Virus record (IMG/VR): IMGVR_UViG_3300010370_000028
Span: 1 to 64,000 of that record
Strand: one strand, 5' to 3'
DNA from: a virus
Length of the DNA stretch: 64,000 bases
Part shown: one piece after another, positions 11,547-52,655 of the stretch
Position numbering within the stretch: the stretch's first letter is position 1
Layout: each line of letters begins with the position of its first letter
Notes under the pieces: model-generated
What the model was told of the DNA's origin: nothing
What the model saw: the letters and a program-made list of their open reading frames with translations, nothing else
Database searches by the model: none
Made by a program: the position numbers and the translations under genes

Positions 11547-11621
11547 GGGTCGTTAGTTAAATGGATATAACAAGAAACTTCTAATTTTTAGTTGATGGTT
11601 CGATTCCATCACGACCTACCA
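11547..11621 (+). tRNA. tRNA-Arg(TCT)
   Basis: acceptor GGGTCGT/ACGACCT, anticodon loop CTTCTAA, T arm GATGG-TTCGATT-CCATC, encoded CCA. Confidence 0.9.
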
Positions 11622-25600: not shown

Positions 25601-26329
25601 ATGGCAAAGAAAAAAACCGACTTGTCGGGTTCTCTTGAGATTCGTCCTCAATTAGAACATAGCATTAAACTAAAACCCCGTAAATTTAAGTTTACTCCAA
25701 AGCAGCAAAAGTTTTTGGATATGGTCTTAGACCCCCAAAACCCAATCATATTTGTATCGGGTCCAGCAGGAAGTTCTAAAACATATATGTCGTTATATGC
25801 GGCTATCCAAATGATGATTAAAGATAAAGAGCGCGAATTACTTTATGTTCGTAGTATTATCGAAAGCGCTGACCAAGGATTAGGTAGTTTACCTGGAGAT
25901 GTAGCAGAAAAGTTTGATCCATTCCTTATTCCTCTTTACGATAAGCTTGATGAAATCATTGTACCACAAGATGTAGTATGGTTGAAAGGTCAAGGCAAGA
26001 TTGGTGCTATACCAATTAACTTTCTTCGCGGTGCAAACTGGACAGATAAGATTGTTGTTGCAGATGAAGCGCAGAACTTTACATTTAAAGAACTTACAAC
26101 TTTAATTACTCGCGTTGGAGAAGGAACAAAACTTATTATTTGCGGCGACTTCATGCAAAGTGATATTAATGGCCGTTCTGGTTTCTCACCGATGTTTAGA
26201 ATCTTTGATGATGAAGAAAGTAAATCAAAAGGCGTGTGTACTTTCTGTTTTAATGAGTCAGACATTGTACGCAGTGAAATTTTGAAATTTTTAATCTCAA
26301 GATTACAAAAAGCAGAAAAAAATGTGTAA
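25601..26329 (+). CDS. phoH: PhoH-like ATPase
   Basis: GPAGSSKT, LPGD..EK..P, FLRG, DEAQN, TRVGE, GD..QSD and DIVRS motifs. Confidence 0.92.
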   Translation: MAKKKTDLSGSLEIRPQLEHSIKLKPRKFKFTPKQQKFLDMVLDPQNPIIFVSGPAGSSKTYMSLYAAIQMMIKDKERELLYVRSIIESADQGLGSLPGDVAEKFDPFLIPLYDKLDEIIVPQDVVWLKGQGKIGAIPINFLRGANWTDKIVVADEAQNFTFKELTTLITRVGEGTKLIICGDFMQSDINGRSGFSPMFRIFDDEESKSKGVCTFCFNESDIVRSEILKFLISRLQKAEKNV

Positions 26330-26698: not shown

Positions 26699-27054
26699 GT
26701 CAAATATTCTGTTCAAGCTGCGGGACCAAACATCAATATACATACTCTCAACCAAAATTCTGTTCCAACTGTGGTCAGTCTTTTGGAGCTTCTTTCTTGC
26801 CACCAAAAAAGCAAGTAACTAGCGCCAAGTATGATATTGATGAAGAGGATGAAGAAGACGATGGTGAAAACACTAACGTTCAACATGTTCCTAATATTCG
26901 AAATCTACAAGTAGACATCGAAAAAGAAGAGGGAAATAATCAATTTACTCTTGGTTCTTTATTTGGCCAAGGTAATGCGGGTGTTTCGAGGAGGAGTCGC
27001 CGTTCCAAAACGGTAGATGATTTTATTAGCGAAAAATCTACCAGTGGGGAATAA
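26695..27054 (+). CDS. zinc-ribbon protein
   Basis: FCSSCG...KFCSNCG followed by an acidic tract. Confidence 0.75.
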   Translation: MSQIFCSSCGTKHQYTYSQPKFCSNCGQSFGASFLPPKKQVTSAKYDIDEEDEEDDGENTNVQHVPNIRNLQVDIEKEEGNNQFTLGSLFGQGNAGVSRRSRRSKTVDDFISEKSTSGE

Positions 27055-27733
27055 AAAATATAAATATGAAGATTATTCCGATGTCATTGATGCTACTATA
27101 AGAAAGTTTAGGTCTAAGTGGCAATTAAATGCAATCAATTGGTTTGATTTCTCCGATGTAGAGCAGATTATTAAGATTCACATCCACAAAAAGTGGGATA
27201 TGTGGGATCAATCACTTCCTCTTGAGCCTTGGATAGCAAGAATAGCTTCTAATCAAATTAAAAACATAATTAGAAACAATTATACTAATTATGTTAAACC
27301 TTGTATGCAGTGCAAGTTTAACATGGGTGATAACCTTTGTTCTTGGACTCGCAGTGGTAATCAAAATGCAACCTGCGATATGTATGCAAAATGGTCTAAG
27401 CAAAAGAAAGCGGGGTATGGTATTAAATTGCCTGTTGCTTTAGAAAATCATTTAAAAGAAATAGATTCCCAACCAGACACATCAATTCATTTTGATTCAG
27501 CAATAGAAAGATTAAACGAATTATTAAAAGCCAAATTAAGTGAACAACACTATACTGTTTACATAATGTTATTTTTCGAAGAAAAGCCCGAAGAAGAGGT
27601 TGCTAAGTATATGGGTTATAAAACAAATGAAAAAAACAGAAAGGCTGGATACAAACAAATAAAAAATCTTAAAAAAATGCTTAGGGAAAAAGCTGAAGAA
27701 ATAATTAGAGATAATGATATTATAATAGAATAA
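27044..27733 (+). CDS. phage sigma-70/ECF-like sigma factor with Cys4 linker
   Basis: region 2 (D..Q.I......W..WD...LEPWI.RIA.NQ.KN..R), CxxC-x8-C-x11-C, region 4 HTH (LSE.......L.F.E.....EVAKYMG); GTG start at 27044 likely. Confidence 0.7.
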   Translation: MGNKKYKYEDYSDVIDATIRKFRSKWQLNAINWFDFSDVEQIIKIHIHKKWDMWDQSLPLEPWIARIASNQIKNIIRNNYTNYVKPCMQCKFNMGDNLCSWTRSGNQNATCDMYAKWSKQKKAGYGIKLPVALENHLKEIDSQPDTSIHFDSAIERLNELLKAKLSEQHYTVYIMLFFEEKPEEEVAKYMGYKTNEKNRKAGYKQIKNLKKMLREKAEEIIRDNDIIIE

Positions 27734-27735
27734 CA

Positions 27736-28785
27736 ATGTTAACTGAATTACAAAAACAGCAAGTTGTCGAGATCTACAAATCTACTTCTGATTTGAATGA
27801 GATCACTCGTCGCGTTTTCGATAACCCAGACATTGACGGCAGAAGTAAAGAGGGGCGCTTAATTAGACAGTTTATGATTGAGAGTAAGCTCAAATTTAAA
27901 ACTGCTAGACGAGAAAAGAAAGAAGGTATCGAGTTTACTGAAGAACAAAAAGATTTTATTATTAAACAAGGTAATGATGGGTTATCTTCTTTAAAGATTG
28001 CCGAAATTGTTTTCCCAAAGAAAGAAGTTAAACCACTTTCTCTTGAACAGAGAGCCGTTCTCGATATCCTCAGAGAAGCTAATCCAGACTATACACCATC
28101 TCAAGATACTGATGCCTCACTCAGCAGTTACGTTGCCCCCAAGTCTACTGGGCGCATCGTCAAGAAGATCAACGATGCCACTGGGTTATTTTTGGAAGAA
28201 GATAAGTTAAATAGGCAACATAAGAATTGCGTAGATAGGTTGGGGATAAACCTTAATAATTCTAGATTTGTTAAAATTGTCAATAACTATACATCTAAAG
28301 ATGATCGTGAGTTATTTGAGCAAGAATTTATTCGTTTAACTTGGGATAAACCAGATTTAACAGCAGATGAAATTAATTTATACATGAACGTCTGCAAAGA
28401 AGTTATTAATTTAGAAGTTGTAAGTAAACACCTTAATAAGCTCAATGATTTGTTTGATATTGCAAACGATCAAGAAGAAATGAGTATAAGATTGGCAGAA
28501 ATTATTAAAGCTAAAAGCTCTGAATATCATCAGTGCGAAGGTCGAATCGAAAATCTTACAAAAAAATTACAGGGAGATCGTTCTGAACGAATGAAGAATA
28601 AGCATAAGGAAAATGCATCTATTCTTTCTTTGGTTCAATTTTTCCAAGATGAAGAAGAACGAAAAAATATGGTAAGAATGGCTGAGATGCAAAAAGAAGT
28701 CATTCAACAAGAAGCTCACAGACTTGAAGGCATGTCCGAATGGAAAGCAAGGGTTTTAGGTATTTCTCAAGAAGATGTCATTTAA
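27736..28785 (+). CDS. HTH/coiled-coil protein, candidate terminase small subunit
   Basis: FTEEQK.FI......LS...IA HTH-like segment, long coiled coil, position upstream of TerL. Confidence 0.45.
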   Translation: MLTELQKQQVVEIYKSTSDLNEITRRVFDNPDIDGRSKEGRLIRQFMIESKLKFKTARREKKEGIEFTEEQKDFIIKQGNDGLSSLKIAEIVFPKKEVKPLSLEQRAVLDILREANPDYTPSQDTDASLSSYVAPKSTGRIVKKINDATGLFLEEDKLNRQHKNCVDRLGINLNNSRFVKIVNNYTSKDDRELFEQEFIRLTWDKPDLTADEINLYMNVCKEVINLEVVSKHLNKLNDLFDIANDQEEMSIRLAEIIKAKSSEYHQCEGRIENLTKKLQGDRSERMKNKHKENASILSLVQFFQDEEERKNMVRMAEMQKEVIQQEAHRLEGMSEWKARVLGISQEDVI

Positions 28786-29713
28786 GTGTAAAGAGTGCGG
28801 ACAGGAGTTCCCTGCCCTAAAAAGCCTTCATACGCATATCAAAAAGCATGATATGCTGTTGGGTGAGTATTATGTTAAAAACTATCAGCGTAGAAATAAA
28901 TTAACTGGCGATTTAATGCAGTTTAAAAACTACGACGAATACTTTGAAAAAGATTTTAGCAATCGTGATCAATTATTAAAATGGTGTGACTCTGCTCCAT
29001 TCTCAGAAGTTTCTGATTATATAATTAAAATTTTAAAAGATCGCATAGAAAAAAAAGAATTAAAATACGCACCAAACTCAATAGAGTTATATACTAACCA
29101 ACTCCCATCAATAGATGTTTATAAAAAATTCTATGGAAGTTATACTGATGCTTGTAAAAAATGTTTAGTCGAACCAATGTTTGGCGGTAAATTCCCAAAA
29201 GAATTTCATAATGATTACTCAAAAATTAAAATTTTTATAGATACAAGAGAGCAAAAGCCACTTCCTTTTAAAAATTTTGAGAAATTAAAACTAGATGTTG
29301 GTGATTATGCCGTTGGTGGCGAGCATTATAGCTATACTTATGTAGATAGAAAGTCTTATGATGATTTTTGCAATACAATGGGTAATGGTTATGAAAGATT
29401 TCGTAGAGAATTAGAAAGATGTAGAAGTCTTGGGTCTTATTTATTTGTTGTTGTAGAAACAGATTTATACAAGATGGAAAAAAAGAATATCTTTACTCCA
29501 CAAAAAGTAAATTTAAAATATGTTTTCCATAATATGAGAACAATACAGCACGATTTTAGAGACTGCTGCCAGTTTGTATTTAGTGGAAATAGAAGTAATA
29601 GCACTCTCCTTATTCCAAAGCTTTTGGTTTTAGGTAAAAAAGTCTGGAATACAGATATACAATATTTCTTAGATTCTGGCGTAATGAATTATTTTGAAAG
29701 GAAAAAATCATGA
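28775..29713 (+). CDS. C2H2 zinc finger plus ERCC4/XPF-family nuclease
   Basis: CKEC...LHTHIKKH; IDTREQ, L.VGDY, DRKS..D, RF..EL.R and VVVE motifs. Confidence 0.8.
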   Translation: MSFKCKECGQEFPALKSLHTHIKKHDMLLGEYYVKNYQRRNKLTGDLMQFKNYDEYFEKDFSNRDQLLKWCDSAPFSEVSDYIIKILKDRIEKKELKYAPNSIELYTNQLPSIDVYKKFYGSYTDACKKCLVEPMFGGKFPKEFHNDYSKIKIFIDTREQKPLPFKNFEKLKLDVGDYAVGGEHYSYTYVDRKSYDDFCNTMGNGYERFRRELERCRSLGSYLFVVVETDLYKMEKKNIFTPQKVNLKYVFHNMRTIQHDFRDCCQFVFSGNRSNSTLLIPKLLVLGKKVWNTDIQYFLDSGVMNYFERKKS

Positions 29714-31569
29714 GTTGGGAAGCTGGTAATCAAAAATTAAATAAAAAATTTAAAAACATTAATCAAGAGATACTTGATACAAAAGGTTTTATTGACGAGA
29801 AGAAAGCTAAAATTTTATTATATAAATTTTTAAAAGAAAACCCATCTTTCTCTTCTGAATTAATTACAGGTGTTTCATTATTCCCGTTCCAACATATGGC
29901 AATTAAAGCTATGATGGAAACTGATTACTTTTTGGGTATCTGGTCCCGTGGTATGAGTAAATCTTTCTCTACCGCAATCTTTGCTATTCTAGATGCGATT
30001 TTAAATCAAGGCGTACATATTGGAATCATTAGTAAATCATTCAGGCAGTCTAAAATGATTTTCCGTAAGATTGAAGAGATTTCTCGAAGCCCTAAAGCTG
30101 GATTCCTTTCTCAATGCATTAATAGAATATCAAAAACAAATGATGAATGGGTAATTGAAATTGGTAGAAGCAAGATAACAGCCCTGCCACTTGGCGATGG
30201 TGAAAAACTCCGTGGTTTCCGTTTCCAGAGAATGATTATTGACGAGCTTCTTCTGATGCCAGAAAAGATTTTAAATGAAGTTATTCTTCCATTCCTTTCT
30301 GTTGTAGAAAACCCAACTGAAAGACAAAAGCTTTATGATTTAGAAACTACTTTGATTCAACAAGGTAAGATGTCTGAAGAAGAGCGTTATAGATGGCCAA
30401 ATAACAAAATTATTGGATTATCTTCAGCAAGTTATAAATTCGAATATCTTTATAAACTATATCAACAATATGAATCATTAATTTTTAATAATGCTGAAAA
30501 AGATAATGCCCATAGAGTTATTATGCATTTTAGCTACGATTGCGCACCAGATCAACTTTATGACCAAAACTTAATTAATCAAGCTAAAGCTACAATGAGT
30601 CAGTCTCAGTTTGATCGTGAGTTTGGTGCTGTATTTACTGACGATAGCTCTGGTTACTTTAAGGTAAGCAAAATGGCGCTTTGCACCATACCTGATGGAG
30701 AAGGTCAAAGCGTAGAGGTTGTAGGCGATCCTACGGCTCAATATATACTAGCATTTGACCCGTCTTGGTCAGAAAGTGAAGGATCTGACGACTTCTCCAT
30801 GCAATTATTAAAAATTAATCCAGAAAAAAGAAATGGAACAGTAGTTCATAGCTATGCCCTTTCTGGAACTAATTTGAAAAAGCATATTGAGTATATGCAT
30901 TATTTATTAACTCATTTTAATGTTGTTTCAATTGTAGGTGACTATAACGGAGGCGTTCAGTTTATTAATTCTTGTAATGAAAGTGAAATATTTAAAAAAG
31001 CTGGGATTAAATTAGATACATTTGATGCCGATTTCGATAATCCGCAAGAATACGATAAGGCTTTGAGAGATGCAAGAAATCAATATAATGTATCTACTAG
31101 AAGAATAGTTAACTTAAGGAAACCAAGTTCTGCTTGGATTAGATATGCCAATGAATCGTTACAGGCAGCATTTGATCACAAGAGAATATGGTTTGCTGGA
31201 GCGGCAATGGATGAAGCTTATAATAAACAAAGGTTAGCTAATATACCAATTCAAACATTAAAATTCTCAAGGCATGATGATGAAAAAGAATCTGGCGCTA
31301 GACAAATTGATTTTATTGAACAATTAAAAGACAATATTGAACTTATTAAAGTACAATGCGCACTTATTCAAGTAAATACTTCAGCTCAAGGTACGCAAAG
31401 TTTTGACTTACCAATGAATCTAAAAAAGCAAAGAGGGGCTGATAAAGCAAGAAAAGACTCTTATTCTACGTTAGTTTTAGGCAACTGGATGATGCAAACT
31501 TATTTTGATATGATTAACCTTCAAGAGCAGAATATTCAAGCCACATTCGTCCCAATGTTTATTAATTAA
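29710..31569 (+). CDS. terL: terminase large subunit
   Basis: Q motif (LFPFQ), SRGMSKS Walker A, RGFR..MIIDE Walker B, LSSA, FDREFGA.F, LAFDP nuclease Asp, KD.YS. Confidence 0.85.
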   Translation: MSWEAGNQKLNKKFKNINQEILDTKGFIDEKKAKILLYKFLKENPSFSSELITGVSLFPFQHMAIKAMMETDYFLGIWSRGMSKSFSTAIFAILDAILNQGVHIGIISKSFRQSKMIFRKIEEISRSPKAGFLSQCINRISKTNDEWVIEIGRSKITALPLGDGEKLRGFRFQRMIIDELLLMPEKILNEVILPFLSVVENPTERQKLYDLETTLIQQGKMSEEERYRWPNNKIIGLSSASYKFEYLYKLYQQYESLIFNNAEKDNAHRVIMHFSYDCAPDQLYDQNLINQAKATMSQSQFDREFGAVFTDDSSGYFKVSKMALCTIPDGEGQSVEVVGDPTAQYILAFDPSWSESEGSDDFSMQLLKINPEKRNGTVVHSYALSGTNLKKHIEYMHYLLTHFNVVSIVGDYNGGVQFINSCNESEIFKKAGIKLDTFDADFDNPQEYDKALRDARNQYNVSTRRIVNLRKPSSAWIRYANESLQAAFDHKRIWFAGAAMDEAYNKQRLANIPIQTLKFSRHDDEKESGARQIDFIEQLKDNIELIKVQCALIQVNTSAQGTQSFDLPMNLKKQRGADKARKDSYSTLVLGNWMMQTYFDMINLQEQNIQATFVPMFIN

Positions 31570-43694: not shown

Positions 43695-46600
43695 ATGCCA
43701 CTACAAGTACCAGTAACTCAAACAGGATTAGAAGCGAGCATTATAGCGGCAGCTAAAAAAGCTGGCAGGAACTTAAATATAAATCTAGGTACTAATACTA
43801 GAAGTATTAGCGCCTTATCTCAACCACTTGGAAGAATTACTGGTCAGGCTGATGAATTTACAAAATCAATGGAAGCCGCAAATGCTCGTGTATTTGCTTT
43901 CGGTGCTTCAGTTGGTATTATTAATGGAGTAACTAAAGCTTTTGGAGCATTAGTTAGAAATACAATTGAGGTTGAAAGATCTCTTGTAGAAATTAATACA
44001 GTTTTGGGAGCGAGTAGCGACTCTTTACAAAAATTTGGTAATAAACTTTTTGATGTAGCTAAAAGTACTGGTCAAACTTTTGATATTGTTGCCAAAGGTG
44101 CATTAGAACTTGCAAGACAAGGTTTAAGTACAGAAGAAACTTTAAAAAGAATTAATGATGCACTTATTCTTTCAAGACTTTCTGGTTTAGATGCACAACA
44201 ATCTGTTGAAGGTTTAACAGCGGCATTTAACTCATTTAAAGAAACTGGAATTACAACATCTCAAATTCTTAACAAATTAGTTGTTGTTTCTCAAAAATAT
44301 TCTGTTTCAGAAAGAGATTTAATTGAAGGTCTTAAAAGATCTGCGTCTGTTGCGGATCAAGCTGGTGTTTCTTTTGATGAATTAGTTGGTATTATTACAA
44401 CCGTTCAAGAAAGAACTGCTCGTGGTGGTGCTGTTATTGGTAACGCATTTAAAACAATTTTTGCTCGCATACAAGATAGAGGAGCATTAGAAGATTTGCG
44501 TAGTTTTGGTATAGAAATTCAAGATGTACAAGGAAAAATTTTACCAGCAACACAAATTTTACAAAACTTAGCTGGAGAATTCAATAAATTAACTCAAGTA
44601 GAACAGGCAGATCTTGCCAAAAAACTTGGCGGTGTCTATCAGTTATCAAACTTATTAGCTGCAGTTAAAGATTTATCAAGTGAGCAGTCTAAGTATGTTG
44701 ATATTGTTAAACTTTCAGCTGGAGCAACTGATGAAGCTTATAAGAAAAATGCTGCATTAAATGAAACTCTTGCTACTTTAATTAATAAAGTTACTCTTAG
44801 CGCACAACAACTTGGTGCAACTTTAGGAGAAATTGGTATTGCTGATGGCTTAAAGAAGTTATTAGATTTTGTTAATTATATTTTTGAAGGTTTCCAAAAA
44901 ATCCTTGGAGAAGAAAGTGCATTAGGAACTTTATTTAAAGGGTTAGCAAAGGGAATTGGAAGTGTTTTAGCTGGTCCTGGTTTAGCAATATTTGCAGCTA
45001 TTATTGGAAAACTTTCTATACAATTAGCTGGGTTTGGTGTTGAAGCTTTAAAGTCCTTCTTTAAAATAACCTCCACTTCAAAAGAACTTCAAAATATACA
45101 AGGTGCTATTACAAGCACTTTATTAAATAATAAACAAATACAACAACAAATTTTAAATCTTGAAGGCAATAGGGTTGCTCAAGCACAATTTATAAGTACA
45201 GCTTTAAATGAGCAACTTAAAACAATGCAGAGAATGCAAAGCATTGCAGCATCTATAACTCCAGATGTTTATGCAGCAACATCTGGCGCTCGAAAAAGTG
45301 CGTCAAAAAATGTAGCTGGTGCAGCTGGTGGTTATATGCCAGCAGTTGCTGGAGAAGCTTCAGATATTCGTCGTGGTGTTGGTGGGGCAAGAGCTGGTGA
45401 TAAACCAGTAGTAATTCCAAATTTTGCATTTGGTGGCGGCAAGAAAGGAACTATGGTTGCTCATACTGGTGAGTATATTGTTCCTAATTTTGCAAGAGGT
45501 GGGTCTGCTATCTTTAATAGAGATATGATTGCATCAATGGGTCTTCCATCTGGCGCTAAAAAGATTGGTGCTGCTGGAGGATTTATTCCAAATTTTGCTG
45601 AATGGTATGATAGTTCAACTAAAAAAGTAGTAACTTCAACAGATTATCCAAAAACTCCAGGGAATTGGACAAAAATTGCCAGTAATTCCCAAACCTATAG
45701 AAAATATGCAGATACTTTAGAAAATTATAAACTTCCTAATGTTGACTTTTATCTGTTCCCAGATGGAACGGGTGGTCGTGGAGCTACAGTTAGAGGCGCT
45801 CTTGGTAGAAGTAAATCTAAAGCAGTTGAGAATATTGAAAAACAACAGCAAAAAGTTGAAAAATCTGGGTTTTTTAATTTAAATGCAGATCAGCTAGGCG
45901 GAATCCTTCTTGTTTCGCCTAGATTTGGTAAAGGAGTCGGTAGTTTAGATACATCAATGCAAATTGCAGAAATACCGATCTTTAATCAAGGCAAATTCCA
46001 AGTTGATAAAAATAAATATATTAATTTAAAAGGAGTTAAGACATCTAATACTCCAAGCGGAAGAGATTTACAAGGATTACAGGGAGATATAAGTCAATTA
46101 TTCGCAGGTGGAATTGTAGATCTTGCTTATAGATTATATGGAAGCACTTTTGATCCAGCAAGCGCTGGAGAGTTTACTCAAAAATTAAAATCTTTAGATA
46201 GTTCAAATAAACAACAATTAATACCACAGGCTGCACAAGGAGATTTATTTGAGGCTGCTGGTAAAGTTGCCCTTAATAGTTTTAGCAATTTAGAATCTTT
46301 ATTTGGTTCTGCAGAACAAAATAGACCGTTTGATTTTCAAAATCCAGCTGCATTACAAAAAATGTTTGGAGTTAGTGTTTTAAGAGGGGAAGCGAAAAGA
46401 GGGGGAGAAAAAAACTTTTCGTCATCCAAACAAGTATCTGGTATTATTAAGAAAGTTTTTAATGATCCAGAATATTCTCCAAAAGCATTAGACGCTTTAA
46501 AAGCTCAAGGAGCTTTTAGTGCAGAGATGCAAAAACAGAAAAAAGAAGAAGAAATTTCTAATGCTGTAAGTGGTTTTGTTCCTAATTTTGCAAAAATTTT

Positions 46601-49600
46601 TGATTTAGTTAAAAATTTCAGTAGTACTTTATCACCTAAATTAAAACTTTCAAAATCTTCAGATAATAGATTAAATGAAAATGATTCAGTTAATTTAATT
46701 GGTAATAGATTTAATAAATTGTTTGTACCAAAAAAAGATGGTGAAAATGGAGAAAGATATGAAAAAAGGGTTTTAAGCGAATTAGGTTATACCTCATCAA
46801 TAGGTTTAAATTTTAAAGGTAATTCTGCAATTGATGGATATAAAAATGCTACCTCACTTGTAGAAGTGAAAAGTGGATTTTATAATGAACAAGATACTAA
46901 ACTTAAATTTTTAAGAGCATTAGCAGAAAATTATGGAACAAATAATCAATTAGATATATGGACTAGCAATATTGATGACTTTAAAGTTAATGGATTATTA
47001 GTTCATTCTGATGAATCTGACATAAGTAATAAAAGTAAACCATCACAACTACGAAAAGATTTTCAAATGTCTGACGCTTTAAGAGCGAATAAATACAATC
47101 GCTTAAAAAGATTTTCTAAAGGCTATATTCCTAATTTTGTAAGTCAAAAATATATATTAAATACTCTTGCTAGAATAAAAGCTGGGACAAGTGGTTTCTC
47201 AAAACAAGAACAAGAGACATTCTTAAATAAATTCGGCGCAAAATCTACTGGTAAAAAAATCTCTCTTAGAGAAGTTTATGATAAATTAGATGGAGAAGTT
47301 GGAATTGCTCAATTAATTGATAAAGCCTATTCTGCCGCTGGACTTACAGCGTCTAACGAAGAAGTTTATAGAATGTTTGAAAAACAAACTAAAGCAAATC
47401 CTTATCTATTAAGATCTTTAGTTTCAAAAAAAGGCTTTGTTCCTAACTTCGCAGATCCACTTAAAGAAGCTATAGGTCGTGAAATGTCTGCTGGTGTTCC
47501 AGCTTCACAAATTTATGTAGACCAAAATTCATCATTAAAGAATCCAATGAATCCAATGGGATTAATGGTTGCTAATCGTCGTGATGAACCATCTGGTGGT
47601 ATGCAAGGAATTAATCGCGCTAGAAAAGAAGGCGCTAATCCAATGATGTATGGTGCAGCTGGAGGATTTGTTCCTAATTATGCATCAATTCCAGCAATGC
47701 CAACAATGGGATCAGTGGGTAGTTCATCTGTTGCAAATAAATTTAACGCAGCTTTAAATAAAGCCACCTTAGAATTACAAAATGGTTCTACGACTATTAA
47801 TCAAGTTATTGCTGAATTAGGTAAAATAAGACCGACAGCTACAAAACTAACTGCAAATGCGCAAGCATTAGCTCAAAAATATCAAGAAGAGCTTTTACAA
47901 AGGCAACAAGCAGTTGCTACAAGAATCTTAGAGTCTAATGCTGGCAAAAAATTAGCAGCTCAATTAGATAAAGTTTATATTGAATATAATAAAAGCCAAA
48001 AATCAGCGGCAGATTTAGATGCTGCACAAAAAAAAGCAGCAGCAATATTACAAAAAACAAGTTTAAGTCAATCAAGTCAAAGAGCAATAGTTTCTTCCAC
48101 TGGTTCGTTGGCTGGATCTAGATTAACAGCGCAACCTCAAGCTACTGGAGATTTGTTAACTAAAATGTTTGGTTTGCAAACAGCATTAAGTCTTTTAACT
48201 GGTGCTACTTCTGATACAGAAAATGCTTTTGCTACAGCTGCTAATGCGATTACAAGTGTAGCTTCTAGTTTTACATCTGTTTATTTAGTATTTGAAGGTT
48301 TAAAAGGTGCTGGTGGTAAACTTGGAAGTCTTTTTGGAGCTTTAGGTGGTAAACTTGGTATTTATGCAGCTGGTGCATATGCACTTTATGAAGGTTGGCA
48401 GATTCTTGCTAAAAACCTAGATTCAACAAATAGCTCAATTAATAATGCTTCTTACGCAATGGAAGGTCTTGCAAAAGCGGCATCTGGAGCAACAGTTAAT
48501 TATGGGACATTATCAGAATCACAAAAGAAAAGAATTAAAACATCAAGAGAAGGATTAATTGAAGGAGGAAAATTGTATGAAAAGGTAACGTATGATGCAA
48601 AAGGAGAACTTAAAAATCGTGCGTTAATGAAAGCCTCTTTTGAAGGATATAGCGATGAGTTGGAAACACAATTTGAAGGCGCAATAGACCAAGCTTTAGC
48701 TGTAGGTGTTTCATATGATGTAATGTTCAATAAATTTAACGCAGCTGCAAAATCTGCAAATAAAATTACAGCCGAAGAAGTTGAAGGTATGATAAATGAG
48801 TTTAAAATTTTAGCTGAAGAAATAGCTAAAGTAAAACCAACAGATTTTCTTAAAAATGCTGGTATATTTGAGGGTGGAAAAAATGCAGAATTTGCTAAAA
48901 AATTTCAAAACTATACTTCTGATCAATTAGAAGAACAATTAAAATTATTTAATGAAAAAGGAAAAGGTAAAGGAACTACACAGCTACAAGAACTTATTAC
49001 GCAATACACCCCAATTAGAGGTTTAACAGCTCAAAAAGATTTTGCTAGAGCAGCTTATCAACAACAAAAAGAGGCTGCAAAAGTTCAAGAAGAAAGCATT
49101 AAAACAGCAACAGAAAGTGCAAGTCTTTCATTATTAAAACAACAGTTAGAAAACAGGATAGCTTACAAAAAAGCTTTATTTGAAGCTTCAAGTGCTGAAG
49201 AATACTCTTTAGAGCTTCAAAAAGAAATGTTATCAGTTAGTGAAAAAGATAGAACATTAGCTGATTATAAATTACAAAGTTTACAAGCCGCCAAAAAACT
49301 AACATCAGAACAAGCTGATGCGACTATTGGTATTTTAAAAGATTCAGAATTAATTCAGAAAAAATTACAAGCCGCTGGAGTTGCTGATAAAATTGATCCA
49401 GAAAAATTCAAACAATTAACTTCTGCCGCAGAAGAAGTCGGAGATGCAATTCTAAAGCAAGGTGGATACACTGATGAAGTTAAAACTAAATTACAGGCAT
49501 TATTAACACCTTTAAATTTAACAGCTGAACAGCAAAAATTAATTCGTGATACAGTTCAAGAAACAAATGATCAATTAGCAAAACAAGCTGCTTTACAAAA

Positions 49601-52600
49601 TAAATTAAATGCTCAATCTAATTTACAAAAAGCAACTTTAGAAGCTATAAATTTCATTACTCAAAAAAGATCTGAAGCAATTACTAATCAATATGATAAG
49701 CAGTTAAAAGCAAATGAATTGGAAAAAAGAAGAATTGATTTAGAAAAAGAAGCGGGTATATTACAATTAGAACGTAGAAAAATTGGCGGCGGCGCTGGAA
49801 GTAATTTAGGTGTTGATAGAGAAATTGCTCAATTAGAAAAAAATGCAATAAAATTAAAATTTGATATTGATCAAAAAGATTTAATAAATCAAGTAAGAAA
49901 AGCACTTGCTGAAGCGGCATTAAGTGCGGGGTTAACGCCAACTGAAGTAGAAAATCTAAATTTACAAAATGTAACAACTAAAGAACAGGCTGTAGATAAA
50001 GCTAAAGAAATTGAAGACATTGAAACAGAAATAAAAATAAAAAAATTAATAGCAGCTCAAGAAGAATTTAAAAAAACTATTTTAGCTTCCAATTACTTTA
50101 AAAATCAAGTAACGAGTGCGGCAGATATATTTCTTCAAAAAATTCAAGAAGCTTTTCCTGGGGCTAAAACTTCATTTGTAACTCAAGACGACTTAAACCA
50201 ATATGTACAAAATTTAAATAAAGGGGATGCAGGTGGGGCGCAAACGCTTCCCCCAACTGTTGTTACACCTGAAGAAGATTTAATAGCAAAAGGACAAGCG
50301 GAAATTGATGCTTTACTTGCAAACAGAAAAACGGGAGATTCTTCTTTTGTTGGTGATGTTGAAAGATTGTTTGATGAAAATCAAAAGATTAAATATCTTG
50401 AATTTCAAAATGCTCTTACAGAAATAGATAATCGTCTTTTAGCTGCTGGAGGATCTTTAACTACATTTGCTAATTTAGTAAGAGATGTATTCAGTAATTT
50501 GCCAGAAAATATTGCTCAAAATCAATTTGCAATGTTAACTGCAACAGATACTCAGTCCATCATAGGAAATGCTGTAGAAGCAAGAAGAAATGCTATATTA
50601 GCGCAGGGACCAAAAGATGAAACAACTATTGTCAAAGCCGCTGACGCTACAGCAATTTATGAAAAAGAACTTGAGATCAAAAAAGCAATCACTGCCGCAG
50701 ATAAAATTAACGGCGAATTTGAATTGCAAAAATTAAAAGAAATTCTTCCACTTAGATTAGAATTATTAAAAGCTGAAACAAATGAAGAAAGAGAAGCTAT
50801 AATTGATAGAATCATAGCAAAGGAAAAACAAAGACTCCCAATTCTTCAAAGAATAAAAGCCGAATTTTCTTCTACCGCAGAACAAAGAACTGCAGAACTT
50901 GAAGATTCTGTTGTAAATGCTTCTGTTCAATTTAGAGATAATATAGTTGAAGGAATATCACAAGCTATTGAAGGAGGTTCAAGTTTAAAAGATATATTAT
51001 TAAATGCTGCTCTTGAATTTACTAGAGAAATAACAAAAGCATCTTTAAAAAATGCTCTTGGTTCAATAGGAAATTTATTTAATTTCGGAGGAGTTGGAAA
51101 ATATGCCTCTGGTGGTATGATTAATGGAGGTTCTGGATCAAAAGATGATGTTCCAGCAATGTTAATGGGTGGAGAGTTTGTTGTAAATAAAAAAGCTGTA
51201 CAAAAATATGGACCAGACTTTTTACATGCAATTAATAATGGCACATTAGGTGGATACGCTAAAGGTGGCGGTGTTAAAAAATTTACTGATCAAACAGGTG
51301 AGGGTGGATATTTCTTACCAGGTTTATATGGTAATGAATCAGTTGCTAGTCAACAAGGTTTATTTGATTTTGCAACACAAAATTATACATCTGGAGCTAG
51401 AGATGTAATTTCTTCTGGAGAAAATTATGCATCAATTAATTTAGAAACGGAAAGTTTTAGATTAACTCAAAGAGGAAGAGAGAATAATCCAATGTTTGCT
51501 GCCACTCAATCAGCAAAAGAGCAAGCATTAGGATTAGTTTTTCAAGAAGCTGAAAACTGGGAAAAATATCGTGAGGCGGTAGAAGAAGCAAAAAGACAGG
51601 AAAAAGAAAGACAAAAAGCAATTCGAAAACAATTATTAATATCTGCAGCAATGGCTGTTGGTAGTGCTGTAGCTGGACCAGTTCTTGGTGCTGCTGCATC
51701 TGGATTTAAAGCTGCATTTGGAGCTTCATCTGCCGCTAATAATGGATTTTTAACAAATCTTGGCGCTGGACTTAAGGGTATATTTACTGGTGGTCAATTA
51801 GCAGGAAGCACCCTGACTCAAAATGTTGGAGGTTTAAATAATTTATTTGCTAGTCTTGGTAAAGGACTAACTGGTAATTTTGCAGAAGCTGGAAATCTTT
51901 TTAAATTATCACAAATAGGAAGCGCCGATCAACTACAAAAAGCTTTTGCTGGGAGTATTACATCTAAAAGTAATTTTTCTAATTATTTAACAGATAATGG
52001 GTATATTCCACAAGCCTCTATTGTTAACGAGGGAGGAATTGGTATTAATGGAACTAACAATTGGTTTTCCAATATTTTTGGTGGGGTGAAAAGATTTTTA
52101 GGCTTGGGTCAGGGTAGAGATATAGATGAAAATGGGTTTGAGTCAACAGCTATTGATAATCCAGCTGTGGGTATGAGTAGACAAGAATTGCTTGAATTAA
52201 CTCAAGACCCATTAATGAGAGATATTTATAATCAAAATCCAGCTGAATGGAAAAGGCGAGCGACTGGTGGAATTATTCCTTCAACCTCTGGTATAGATAC
52301 TGTTCCAGCAATGCTTTCTGGCGGTGAGTTTATTATGAATAGAGCCGCTACTCAAAACATTGGTTCTGGTAATTTACAAGCGTTAAATTCTGGTGGAGGT
52401 TCTGTTGTAACTGAGGAAAAAACAGAAGAATTAAATGATAAATTAATTTCTAAATTAGATGAGTTAATACAAGCGAGTATATCAAAAAGTTCAGTTGGAG
52501 AAATTAATATAAATGTTGATAGTAGCGGTAAATCTAAAGAATCAAGCTCTAATGTTGAAAGCGGTGGACAAAGCCAACAACTTGCAAGAAGTATTAGAGA

Positions 52601-52655
52601 TATGGTTGTAAAAGTTATTCAAGATGAACAAAGATTAGGAGGATTATTAAGATAA
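43695..52655 (+). CDS. tail tape measure protein with internal cargo domains
   Basis: TP901-type core (ELARQG, G..IGNAFKTIFAR), two A.GG...D.VPAML.GGEF motifs, internal PNFA repeats. Confidence 0.9.
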   Translation: MPLQVPVTQTGLEASIIAAAKKAGRNLNINLGTNTRSISALSQPLGRITGQADEFTKSMEAANARVFAFGASVGIINGVTKAFGALVRNTIEVERSLVEINTVLGASSDSLQKFGNKLFDVAKSTGQTFDIVAKGALELARQGLSTEETLKRINDALILSRLSGLDAQQSVEGLTAAFNSFKETGITTSQILNKLVVVSQKYSVSERDLIEGLKRSASVADQAGVSFDELVGIITTVQERTARGGAVIGNAFKTIFARIQDRGALEDLRSFGIEIQDVQGKILPATQILQNLAGEFNKLTQVEQADLAKKLGGVYQLSNLLAAVKDLSSEQSKYVDIVKLSAGATDEAYKKNAALNETLATLINKVTLSAQQLGATLGEIGIADGLKKLLDFVNYIFEGFQKILGEESALGTLFKGLAKGIGSVLAGPGLAIFAAIIGKLSIQLAGFGVEALKSFFKITSTSKELQNIQGAITSTLLNNKQIQQQILNLEGNRVAQAQFISTALNEQLKTMQRMQSIAASITPDVYAATSGARKSASKNVAGAAGGYMPAVAGEASDIRRGVGGARAGDKPVVIPNFAFGGGKKGTMVAHTGEYIVPNFARGGSAIFNRDMIASMGLPSGAKKIGAAGGFIPNFAEWYDSSTKKVVTSTDYPKTPGNWTKIASNSQTYRKYADTLENYKLPNVDFYLFPDGTGGRGATVRGALGRSKSKAVENIEKQQQKVEKSGFFNLNADQLGGILLVSPRFGKGVGSLDTSMQIAEIPIFNQGKFQVDKNKYINLKGVKTSNTPSGRDLQGLQGDISQLFAGGIVDLAYRLYGSTFDPASAGEFTQKLKSLDSSNKQQLIPQAAQGDLFEAAGKVALNSFSNLESLFGSAEQNRPFDFQNPAALQKMFGVSVLRGEAKRGGEKNFSSSKQVSGIIKKVFNDPEYSPKALDALKAQGAFSAEMQKQKKEEEISNAVSGFVPNFAKIFDLVKNFSSTLSPKLKLSKSSDNRLNENDSVNLIGNRFNKLFVPKKDGENGERYEKRVLSELGYTSSIGLNFKGNSAIDGYKNATSLVEVKSGFYNEQDTKLKFLRALAENYGTNNQLDIWTSNIDDFKVNGLLVHSDESDISNKSKPSQLRKDFQMSDALRANKYNRLKRFSKGYIPNFVSQKYILNTLARIKAGTSGFSKQEQETFLNKFGAKSTGKKISLREVYDKLDGEVGIAQLIDKAYSAAGLTASNEEVYRMFEKQTKANPYLLRSLVSKKGFVPNFADPLKEAIGREMSAGVPASQIYVDQNSSLKNPMNPMGLMVANRRDEPSGGMQGINRARKEGANPMMYGAAGGFVPNYASIPAMPTMGSVGSSSVANKFNAALNKATLELQNGSTTINQVIAELGKIRPTATKLTANAQALAQKYQEELLQRQQAVATRILESNAGKKLAAQLDKVYIEYNKSQKSAADLDAAQKKAAAILQKTSLSQSSQRAIVSSTGSLAGSRLTAQPQATGDLLTKMFGLQTALSLLTGATSDTENAFATAANAITSVASSFTSVYLVFEGLKGAGGKLGSLFGALGGKLGIYAAGAYALYEGWQILAKNLDSTNSSINNASYAMEGLAKAASGATVNYGTLSESQKKRIKTSREGLIEGGKLYEKVTYDAKGELKNRALMKASFEGYSDELETQFEGAIDQALAVGVSYDVMFNKFNAAAKSANKITAEEVEGMINEFKILAEEIAKVKPTDFLKNAGIFEGGKNAEFAKKFQNYTSDQLEEQLKLFNEKGKGKGTTQLQELITQYTPIRGLTAQKDFARAAYQQQKEAAKVQEESIKTATESASLSLLKQQLENRIAYKKALFEASSAEEYSLELQKEMLSVSEKDRTLADYKLQSLQAAKKLTSEQADATIGILKDSELIQKKLQAAGVADKIDPEKFKQLTSAAEEVGDAILKQGGYTDEVKTKLQALLTPLNLTAEQQKLIRDTVQETNDQLAKQAALQNKLNAQSNLQKATLEAINFITQKRSEAITNQYDKQLKANELEKRRIDLEKEAGILQLERRKIGGGAGSNLGVDREIAQLEKNAIKLKFDIDQKDLINQVRKALAEAALSAGLTPTEVENLNLQNVTTKEQAVDKAKEIEDIETEIKIKKLIAAQEEFKKTILASNYFKNQVTSAADIFLQKIQEAFPGAKTSFVTQDDLNQYVQNLNKGDAGGAQTLPPTVVTPEEDLIAKGQAEIDALLANRKTGDSSFVGDVERLFDENQKIKYLEFQNALTEIDNRLLAAGGSLTTFANLVRDVFSNLPENIAQNQFAMLTATDTQSIIGNAVEARRNAILAQGPKDETTIVKAADATAIYEKELEIKKAITAADKINGEFELQKLKEILPLRLELLKAETNEEREAIIDRIIAKEKQRLPILQRIKAEFSSTAEQRTAELEDSVVNASVQFRDNIVEGISQAIEGGSSLKDILLNAALEFTREITKASLKNALGSIGNLFNFGGVGKYASGGMINGGSGSKDDVPAMLMGGEFVVNKKAVQKYGPDFLHAINNGTLGGYAKGGGVKKFTDQTGEGGYFLPGLYGNESVASQQGLFDFATQNYTSGARDVISSGENYASINLETESFRLTQRGRENNPMFAATQSAKEQALGLVFQEAENWEKYREAVEEAKRQEKERQKAIRKQLLISAAMAVGSAVAGPVLGAAASGFKAAFGASSAANNGFLTNLGAGLKGIFTGGQLAGSTLTQNVGGLNNLFASLGKGLTGNFAEAGNLFKLSQIGSADQLQKAFAGSITSKSNFSNYLTDNGYIPQASIVNEGGIGINGTNNWFSNIFGGVKRFLGLGQGRDIDENGFESTAIDNPAVGMSRQELLELTQDPLMRDIYNQNPAEWKRRATGGIIPSTSGIDTVPAMLSGGEFIMNRAATQNIGSGNLQALNSGGGSVVTEEKTEELNDKLISKLDELIQASISKSSVGEININVDSSGKSKESSSNVESGGQSQQLARSIRDMVVKVIQDEQRLGGLLR

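Follow-up and report, generated by a model that had tools for sequence, protein, structure and literature searches.

What does a short peptide that recurs seven times in the middle of a phage tape measure protein (TMP) do there, and what are the segments that it sets apart? The question was raised by IMG/VR virus record IMGVR_UViG_3300010370_000028, of which positions 1 to 64,000 were analyzed (the whole stretch, 64,000 nucleotides, is called the window below), and by the array of [IV]PN[FY][AV] copies within its TMP gene. The overall explanation that best fits the observations, to which we give a probability of about 0.55, is a TP901-type TMP bearing an array of cassettes, one of them a nuclease-like module, which may be delivered as cargo and processed. 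Each cassette is a separately folding module ending in (A-A-G-G)-[FY]-[IV]-P-N-[FY]-A, and the array lies between the N-terminal TMP domain and a long C-terminal part.

A peptide-fenced array in a tape measure protein

The gene and the array are made up of the following features.

43695–52655, plus strand: TMP gene, a single unbroken frame (8961 nt, 2986 aa)
44055–44633, plus strand: PhageMin_Tail domain (PF10145), aa 121–313 (Pfam, E 3e-32, 112.5 bits against a cut-off of 33.2)
45414–45428, plus strand: motif copy 1, IPNFA, aa 574 (pattern scan)
45480–45494, plus strand: motif copy 2, VPNFA, aa 596 (pattern scan)
45495–45584, plus strand: conserved 30-aa block between copies 2 and 3, present in 162 relatives
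45579–45599, plus strand: motif copy 3, GFIPNFA, aa 631, where homology blocks to many loci stop
45600–46571, plus strand: segment 1, 324 aa, an alpha/beta module present almost throughout the family (173 of 211 full-length relatives)
46251–46454, plus strand: polar residues of segment 1 that never vary in a 27-sequence alignment, E218, D245, K266 and K285, with E264 being either D or E in relatives
46572–46592, plus strand: motif copy 4, GFVPNFA, aa 962, left end of the segment 2 indel
46593–47120, plus strand: segment 2, 176 aa, accessory PD-(D/E)xK-like module as judged from the AlphaFold2 model and fold lists (in 21 of 211 relatives)
46761–46871, plus strand: candidate active site of segment 2, E57, D81, E91 and K93 (invariant in 16 of 16 aligned sequences)
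47121–47141, plus strand: motif copy 5, GYIPNFV, aa 1145, right end of the segment 2 indel
47142–47432, plus strand: segment 3, an accessory module of 97 aa carried by 34 of the 211 relatives
47433–47453, plus strand: motif copy 6, GFVPNFA, aa 1249 (pattern scan)
47454–47663, plus strand: segment 4, 70 aa (the ~72-aa terminal module), the most conserved module (in 176 of 211 relatives)
47664–47684, plus strand: motif copy 7, GFVPNYA, aa 1326, closing the array, with an abrupt mosaic breakpoint (drop in identity to IMG/VR contig L009)

Besides the PF10145 match, ten PHROG families, each annotated as 'tail length tape measure protein', matched the N-terminal 500–600 residues of the protein, and an eleventh (phrog_35029, function unknown) matched aa 2841–2903. 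A terminase was found upstream (29710–31566), and open reading frames (ORFs) downstream matched phrog_14 (minor tail protein) and phrog_5939 (tail protein). By these sequence matches and this gene order, the ORF at 43695–52655 is a TP901-type phage TMP within a virion gene block.

A scripted scan found seven copies of [IV]PN[FY][AV], all in the frame of this ORF, and no further copy in any of the six frames of the 64-kb window. A preliminary description of this DNA had placed G[FY][IV]PN[FY][AV] at 45579, 46572, 47121, 47433 and 47664 and [IV]PNFA at 45414 and 45480, with intervening segments of 324, 176, 97 and 70 aa; all of these positions and lengths were correct. From the composition of the 211 full-length relatives described below, about 0.02 motif copies would be expected by chance in a protein of the TMP's length, and these relatives together held 1115 copies against 4.3 expected. 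The family consensus of the motif was A-A-G-G-[FY]-[IV]-P-N-[FY]-A.

Fixed frame and optional cassettes among relatives

Of 8000 proteins scored in a word-indexed search with TMP aa 546–1340 as the query, 689 reached E ≤ 1e-3. Lengths among the 120 matches listed ran from 1663 to 4358 aa, and 116 of these 120 carried PF10145 in their precomputed annotation. An exhaustive search gave 820 representatives at 50% identity, 647 of them with E ≤ 1e-10. Retrieved proteins were split at the motif and the pieces clustered by BLASTP, and the census was taken over the 211 proteins longer than 1800 aa.

Motif copies numbered 0 to 13 per protein (mode 5, n=211), and 117 different module orders were counted among the 211 full-length proteins, which bears out the polymorphic content between motif copies that the preliminary description had proposed. 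The segment 1 family was present in 173 proteins and the segment 4 family in 176, the latter nearly always in last position, with 45 invariant columns in 9 sequences. Far fewer proteins carried the families of segment 3 (34/211) and segment 2 (21/211); the segment 2 family stood ahead of the segment 1 family in 12 cases and behind it in 5, and was accompanied by no segment 1 family in the other 4. The array combines optional cassettes with a fixed frame, which consists of two short blocks, the segment 1 module found in nearly all members, and the terminal module of ~72 aa. Segments 2 and 3 exemplify the accessory modules, which are gained, lost, exchanged and moved to other places in the order, with breakpoints within the motif.

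Duplication of the terminal module was also observed. In IMG/VR contig L013 (65.8 kb) the array has one copy of it in its middle and another at its end, as though it were a tandem fusion of two arrays, and the module is likewise duplicated in several long relatives, including one with 13 motif copies.

The family was seen only in metagenomes, in 42 IMG/VR loci and in aquatic and freshwater sequencing runs. Within IMG/VR, segment 2 used as a single protein query gave 35 pattern matches, none of them confirmed, and the 16-member alignment of segment 2 gave 8 loci. Among GenBank phages (INPHARED, 50,697 records), neither megablast with the gene nor tblastn with the 790-aa array gave a match. The alignment of the ~72-aa module gave 16 pattern matches in a bacterial and archaeal collection holding one genome per species, none of which was confirmed, so no prophage or host was identified there. 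All members of the family met in these searches belong to uncultured phages, for the most part from freshwater.

Breakpoints in DNA comparisons

The preliminary description had suggested that the motif marks recombination joints, and three kinds of DNA comparison place breakpoints there. The first is a pair of near-identical phages. IMG/VR contig L009 was 98.4% identical to the window over 45321–46590 and 96.1% identical over 47126–47683, and lacked exactly 549 nt, corresponding to segment 2 plus one motif copy, with both deletion ends in motif copies. In a three-way alignment, L009 followed the left junction through GGTTTT and the right junction from ATTCCTAATTTTGTA on, and the crossover lay inside the 12 nt common to motif copies 4 and 5 (TTCCTAATTTTG). 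At the protein level, identity between the two TMPs was 93–100% at aa 541–1320 and 14–47% from aa 1321 (motif copy 7) to about aa 2460.

The second comparison was made by BLASTN of the gene against all 55 loci retrieved, with block ends counted between 45450 and 47800. Of 116 unique block ends, 94 fell 12 nt or less from a motif, where 10% would be expected (binomial p 2e-72, a nominal value, the loci being related and their block ends not independent).

The third comes from public assemblies (runs X1, X3, X4 and X6; runs X7–X24, with a share <0.2, were left out), in which the uncovered parts in X3, X4 and X6 were counted as absence only where a contig joined across them. Contigs from X3 and X4, two freshwater runs from other samples and studies (depth ~14), joined 46576 to 47126, so the segment 2 deletion form is also present in metagenomes other than that of L009. 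Contig fits started or stopped at 45414, 45598, 47442 and 47683/47684, the last of these in runs X3, X4 and X6, and a low-depth contig of run X1 began fitting at 45414, in motif copy 1. The form with segment 2 was whole only in run X1, possibly the window's own source; run X2, likewise a possible source, contained every word sampled.

A further difference from L009 was noted just before the array. A 60-aa patch at aa 481–540 (45135–45314) was 30% identical to the L009 TMP at equal length, against 72–100% elsewhere, and contigs of runs X4 and X6 showed a block at 45067–45321 recorded as 'skips 253, same length, diverged'. By alignment, aa 481–540 is a small replaced patch.

A nuclease-like accessory module

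Segment 2 contains the strings GERYE, AIDG and VEVKSG and measures 176 aa, as originally described. In an alignment of 16 members (20–55% identical to the window's), E57, S78, D81, G82, E91, K93, G95, K105, R108, E112, N113 and D128 were invariant (16/16), so that the E...D...ExK order first noticed in the single sequence, here E57, D81, E91 and K93, held throughout the alignment. The AlphaFold2 model computed from these 16 members was of high confidence (pLDDT 94.3, pTM 0.90) and mixed alpha/beta. In this model, E57 lies in helix 53–64, D81 just before strand 82–85, and E91 and K93 in strand 88–93, followed by helix 99–112 and strand 129–138. The order of these elements agrees with that of the PD-(D/E)xK core (alpha-beta-beta-beta-alpha-beta, with D opening one strand and ExK on the following one), whereas the first core strand is just a two-residue bridge.

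Fold-search lists for segment 2 were almost wholly composed of restriction-endonuclease-fold nucleases, all at Z ≤ 4.1. Segment 2 has E, D and ExK in the order and at the spacing known from VRR-nuc/FAN1, archaeal Hjc, CdiA-CT and Tox-REase nucleases, its structural elements follow one another as in these enzymes, and it resembles them in structure weakly but consistently (Z ≤ 4.1 in all cases). It differs from these nucleases in having no family membership, in an extra N-terminal helical/hairpin part (aa 1–44), and in being found only inside TMPs. The ESM Atlas linked segment 2 to Tox-REase-7 with a score of 0.85, below the level at which it counts as more than a lead; Tox-REase-7 (PF15649) gave no Pfam match to segment 2 and was not among the 8 families listed for the 16 members (E ≤ 1). 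Taken jointly, the conserved residues, the model and the fold lists make it probable that segment 2 is a divergent PD-(D/E)xK-like (restriction-endonuclease-fold) domain with a complete E/D/ExK site that is probably active.

Segment 2 was also more AT-rich than its surroundings, as had been remarked (GC 0.25 against 0.334 for the whole gene), and its third-position GC was 0.091 against 0.115–0.157. Low GC as a sign of recent import was dropped: the third-position difference is small, and the AT-richness therefore mostly reflects which amino acids are encoded and says little for a foreign origin.

Conservation of the delimiter as a peptide

Among 203 motif copies from 40 distinct TMP ORFs, 100 distinct 15-mers were counted, and every synonymous codon of Pro, Asn, Phe and Ala was used. 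Since synonymous codons vary freely, it is the peptide and not the DNA that is conserved in the motif, and selection, as read from codon usage, acts at the level of the peptide, so the motif is more than a recombination joint. The proposal that it serves as such a joint holds insofar as DNA breakpoints fall there, and fails as an account of its only role. Either something recognizes the motif as protein, or the motif has an intrinsic chemistry. Swaps may be seen there for no other reason than that in-frame exchanges survive at these sites, perhaps aided by 10–15 nt of microhomology.

Motif copy 2 with the adjoining 30-aa block (VPNFA.GGSAIFNR...) resembles, weakly, two blocks in the C-terminal part of the TMP.

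51150–51250, plus strand: first C-terminal VPAML..GGEF..N block, aa 2486 onward
52302–52400, plus strand: second C-terminal VPAML..GGEF..N block, aa 2870 onward, in the region (aa 2841–2903) matched by phrog_35029

The two blocks gave local alignment scores of 34 and 38; out of 2000 shuffles, 81 and 12, respectively, scored as high. The array delimiter may derive from an older TMP element of the VPAML..GGEF..N type.

Possible delivery and processing of the modules

TMPs leave the tail at infection. Because of this, and given the precedent of gp96 in Thermus phage P23-45, the modules may travel in the virion as cargo and act at or inside the host cell during DNA entry, a reading by analogy that we place slightly short of an even chance. 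Segment 2 would then act on nucleic acid, for instance by nicking or degrading host DNA or by countering a defense. As polyvalent proteins are thought to be cut into units, the motif may also be a processing site where the modules are cut free; this step is put forward more tentatively than delivery itself.

Several points weigh against the explanation as a whole. Folded modules of 180–330 aa, multiplied by the several TMP copies of a tail, could scarcely be accommodated in the lumen of a tail tube, and would therefore have to be stored unfolded or located elsewhere. No protease domain was found in the TMP by Pfam or in the 20 neighboring ORFs scanned, so that no cutting enzyme was identified, and Pfam gave no peptidase family in the TMP or in the arrays of seven relatives; it follows that a host enzyme cuts, that the chain cuts itself, or that there is no cutting. 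For segment 2, Foldseek against the PDB gave nothing at E ≤ 1e-3, Pfam and PHROG gave no match, the best match of the PDB profile search was to an unrelated protein (E 0.7), and a Pfam scan of each of the 16 members yielded sub-threshold chance matches and no nuclease family. No free-standing homologue of segment 2 was found among 5538 candidates, which leaves no independent hint of function from that side. None was found for segment 1 either, its sole match being a 532-aa protein on a 1678-nt contig, i.e., a fragment. To these is added the relatedness of the loci behind the BLASTN count.

The main rival to the motif as a processing site is a structural peg, which would keep TMP chains in register or serve to dock them to the tip complex, to a chaperone or to the tube lumen. 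In that case the modules would stay covalently linked and work in the virion, for example as a tube plug or as a nuclease-fold DNA binder on the leading DNA end. Conservation of the peptide at the protein level suits any partner that recognizes it, not only a protease, and the failure to find a protease in the TMP or the scanned neighbors also speaks for a peg. The likeness of copy 2 and the 30-aa block to the C-terminal VPAML..GGEF..N blocks points the same way, but is weak, and the ~72-aa terminal module is almost invariant, as expected of a structural element. However, a peg has no need of the complete and invariant E/D/ExK site of segment 2, and near-identical phages differ by a whole 183-aa module, an odd loss from a fixed internal structure. 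On balance we regard the peg as rather unlikely.

A bolder form of the processing reading is that P-N-[FY]-A cuts itself, with the Asn cyclizing and breaking the chain after itself. Asn-dependent cleavage occurs in the maturation of some animal-virus capsids and in type III secretion switch proteins. The TMP would in that case be a self-processing polyprotein that requires no protease, its ejection would free a changeable kit of enzymes, at least one of them a nuclease, ahead of the DNA, and the same peptide would make new modules plug-and-play through recombination. We consider self-cutting a long shot.

Segment 1 and the smaller segments

The preliminary description had claimed two PD-(D/E)xK nuclease-like domains, in segments 1 and 2. 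The part concerning segment 2 was supported by its conserved site, model and fold lists. Segment 1 (324 aa) contains the quoted strings QGDLFE, RPFDF and GEAKRG, and 27 aligned members (17–60% identical to the window's) shared invariant G214, E218, D245, K266 and K285, with D or E at position 264 and F217, F235 and F246 nearly invariant. The order E...D...(D/E)xK therefore stood in 27 of 27 sequences, together with the additional K285, and fits the superfamily. AlphaFold2 also gave an alpha/beta model (pLDDT 91.5, pTM 0.76) with a long helical hairpin at 157–201. Thus, as had been remarked of the segments generally, neither segment 1 nor segment 2 has the look of a helical ruler, both being confidently modeled as mixed alpha/beta.

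Against a nuclease fold for segment 1, the model has a helix (249–256) between D245 and the ExK strand and just two very short strands near the motif. Four structure searches gave no nuclease-fold match: Foldseek against the PDB (none at E ≤ 1e-3), BFVD (E ≥ 0.12), VIA-align on Foldseek's list, and a wide VIA-align search whose results were filled by the helical hairpin (151–205) and which barely probed the remainder of the domain. By hhalign, segments 1 and 2 showed no profile similarity (probability 0.2). The best match of segment 1 in the PDB profile search was to an unrelated protein (E 0.33), Pfam on all 27 members returned sub-threshold chance matches only, and the window's segment 1 had no Pfam or PHROG match. 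It is therefore improbable that both segments are PD-(D/E)xK domains, and a second nuclease in segment 1 is correspondingly doubtful. Its residue pattern suggests an active or binding site, and by this conservation segment 1 is a conserved enzyme-like or binding module.

Two other assignments of segment 1 were rejected. BFVD rows named 'peptidase', 'zincin' and 'SprT-like' had E values of 0.2–2.3 and TM scores of ~0.1, and the family has no conserved His. Apparent kinship by hhalign to two other module families lay in columns past the end of the window's segment, because cluster members with a missed degenerate motif had merged two modules, and no paralogy was drawn from it.

Segments 3 and 4 gave no Pfam or PHROG match, and the arrays of seven relatives gave just sub-threshold chance matches to Pfam. 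That the modules are inert filler or decoys, tuning TMP length or absorbing host defenses that sense the TMP, with the motif marking tolerated in-frame exchange, would suit the persistence of near-identical phages with and without a module (contig depth ~14–17 in metagenomes) and the lack of any known family match for any module, but is very unlikely in view of catalytic-type residues invariant across sequences 20–55% identical, the confident globular folds of the modules and a delimiter selected at the peptide level.

Relation to known systems

Cell-wall enzymes are known passengers of TMPs, and one phage has a TMP that bears an RNA polymerase. That TMP is gp96 of Thermus phage P23-45, which has 5002 aa and whose N-terminal part is, according to the available text, a virion RNA polymerase, proposed by its authors to act at the entry pore during genome entry (PMC10770324). 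Both are giant TMPs bearing a folded nucleic-acid enzyme, predicted in the present case. As far as that text describes it, gp96 has one N-terminal enzyme, no delimiter peptide and no shuffling, whereas the window's TMP has an internal multi-module array fenced by a conserved peptide.

Polyvalent proteins, as presented in the available text of Iyer et al. (2017, PMC5512222), join mutually unrelated conflict-type domains in one large chain; they are predicted to accompany the DNA and to be split into units, about 36% of them having a zincin-like MPTase hub; the words 'tape measure' have 0 occurrences in that text. The likeness lies in several distinct folded modules within one large phage protein, one of them here with a tentative assignment. 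In the description given there, polyvalent proteins are mostly packaged in the head or delivered by conjugation and have an embedded peptidase, while here the carrier is a TMP, no peptidase was found and one peptide does the fencing. Full-text literature searches brought up no published description of the array, though the supplementary domain lists of PMC5512222 could hold TMP-borne examples.

Muralytic TMPs resemble the window's in having enzymes inside the TMP, and some of the window's own relatives carry GH19, phage lysozyme, VanY or SLT domains; no muralytic Pfam domain was found in the window's TMP. In the three relatives scanned (P0010, P0023 and P0093), the muralytic domain lay at aa 1680–2572 and the arrays ended at aa 1402, 1541 and 960, so that in 3/3 it stood well beyond the array and outside any motif fencing. 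This sets the array modules apart from the muralytic cargo usual in TMPs. The C-terminal half of the relatives' TMPs was itself observed to be a second variable cargo site, without motif fencing.

Sle1-type TMP-related effectors of actinobacterial contractile injection systems, from what the available text reports, also present exchangeable functional domains on a TMP-derived platform, ejected by a tail-like machine (PMC13277306). As described there, they have a single variable C-terminal domain in a bacterial nanomachine, in contrast to the multi-cassette array in a phage TMP.

Other features of the gene and the window

Two hydrophobic stretches flank the array and the long C-terminal part of the TMP.

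44946–45041, plus strand: hydrophobic stretch directly before the array, aa 418–449 (Kyte-Doolittle, 19-residue window, mean >1.5)
51630–51695, plus strand: second hydrophobic stretch, aa 2646–2667 (same Kyte-Doolittle criterion)

From their hydropathy, these are possible membrane-inserting segments of the ejected TMP.

Elsewhere in the window, the ORF at 28775–29710, just upstream of the terminase, matched an ERCC4-type nuclease PHROG (E 1.4e-11). A PhoH-like gene was found at 25601–26329 and a sigma-factor-like gene at 27017–27733, and tRNA-Arg (TCT) at 11547–11621 was the sole tRNA found.

Implications

What is new from this window is a near-isogenic pair of phages with an indel mapped to the motif, with the same deletion in independent metagenomes, and a high-confidence predicted model of one module whose fold lists are nuclease-like. 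A standard peptide that fences modules, by which natural populations differ as whole units, is a general and evolvable way to load a tail with extra proteins. How folded domains of 20–35 kDa travel in or with the tail tube is a physical puzzle. If the modules are delivered, the array would be the phage equivalent of the polymorphic toxin and effector systems and, because no module matches Pfam, also a source of new enzyme families. It would further offer a natural scaffold for engineering phages that bring chosen proteins into bacteria.

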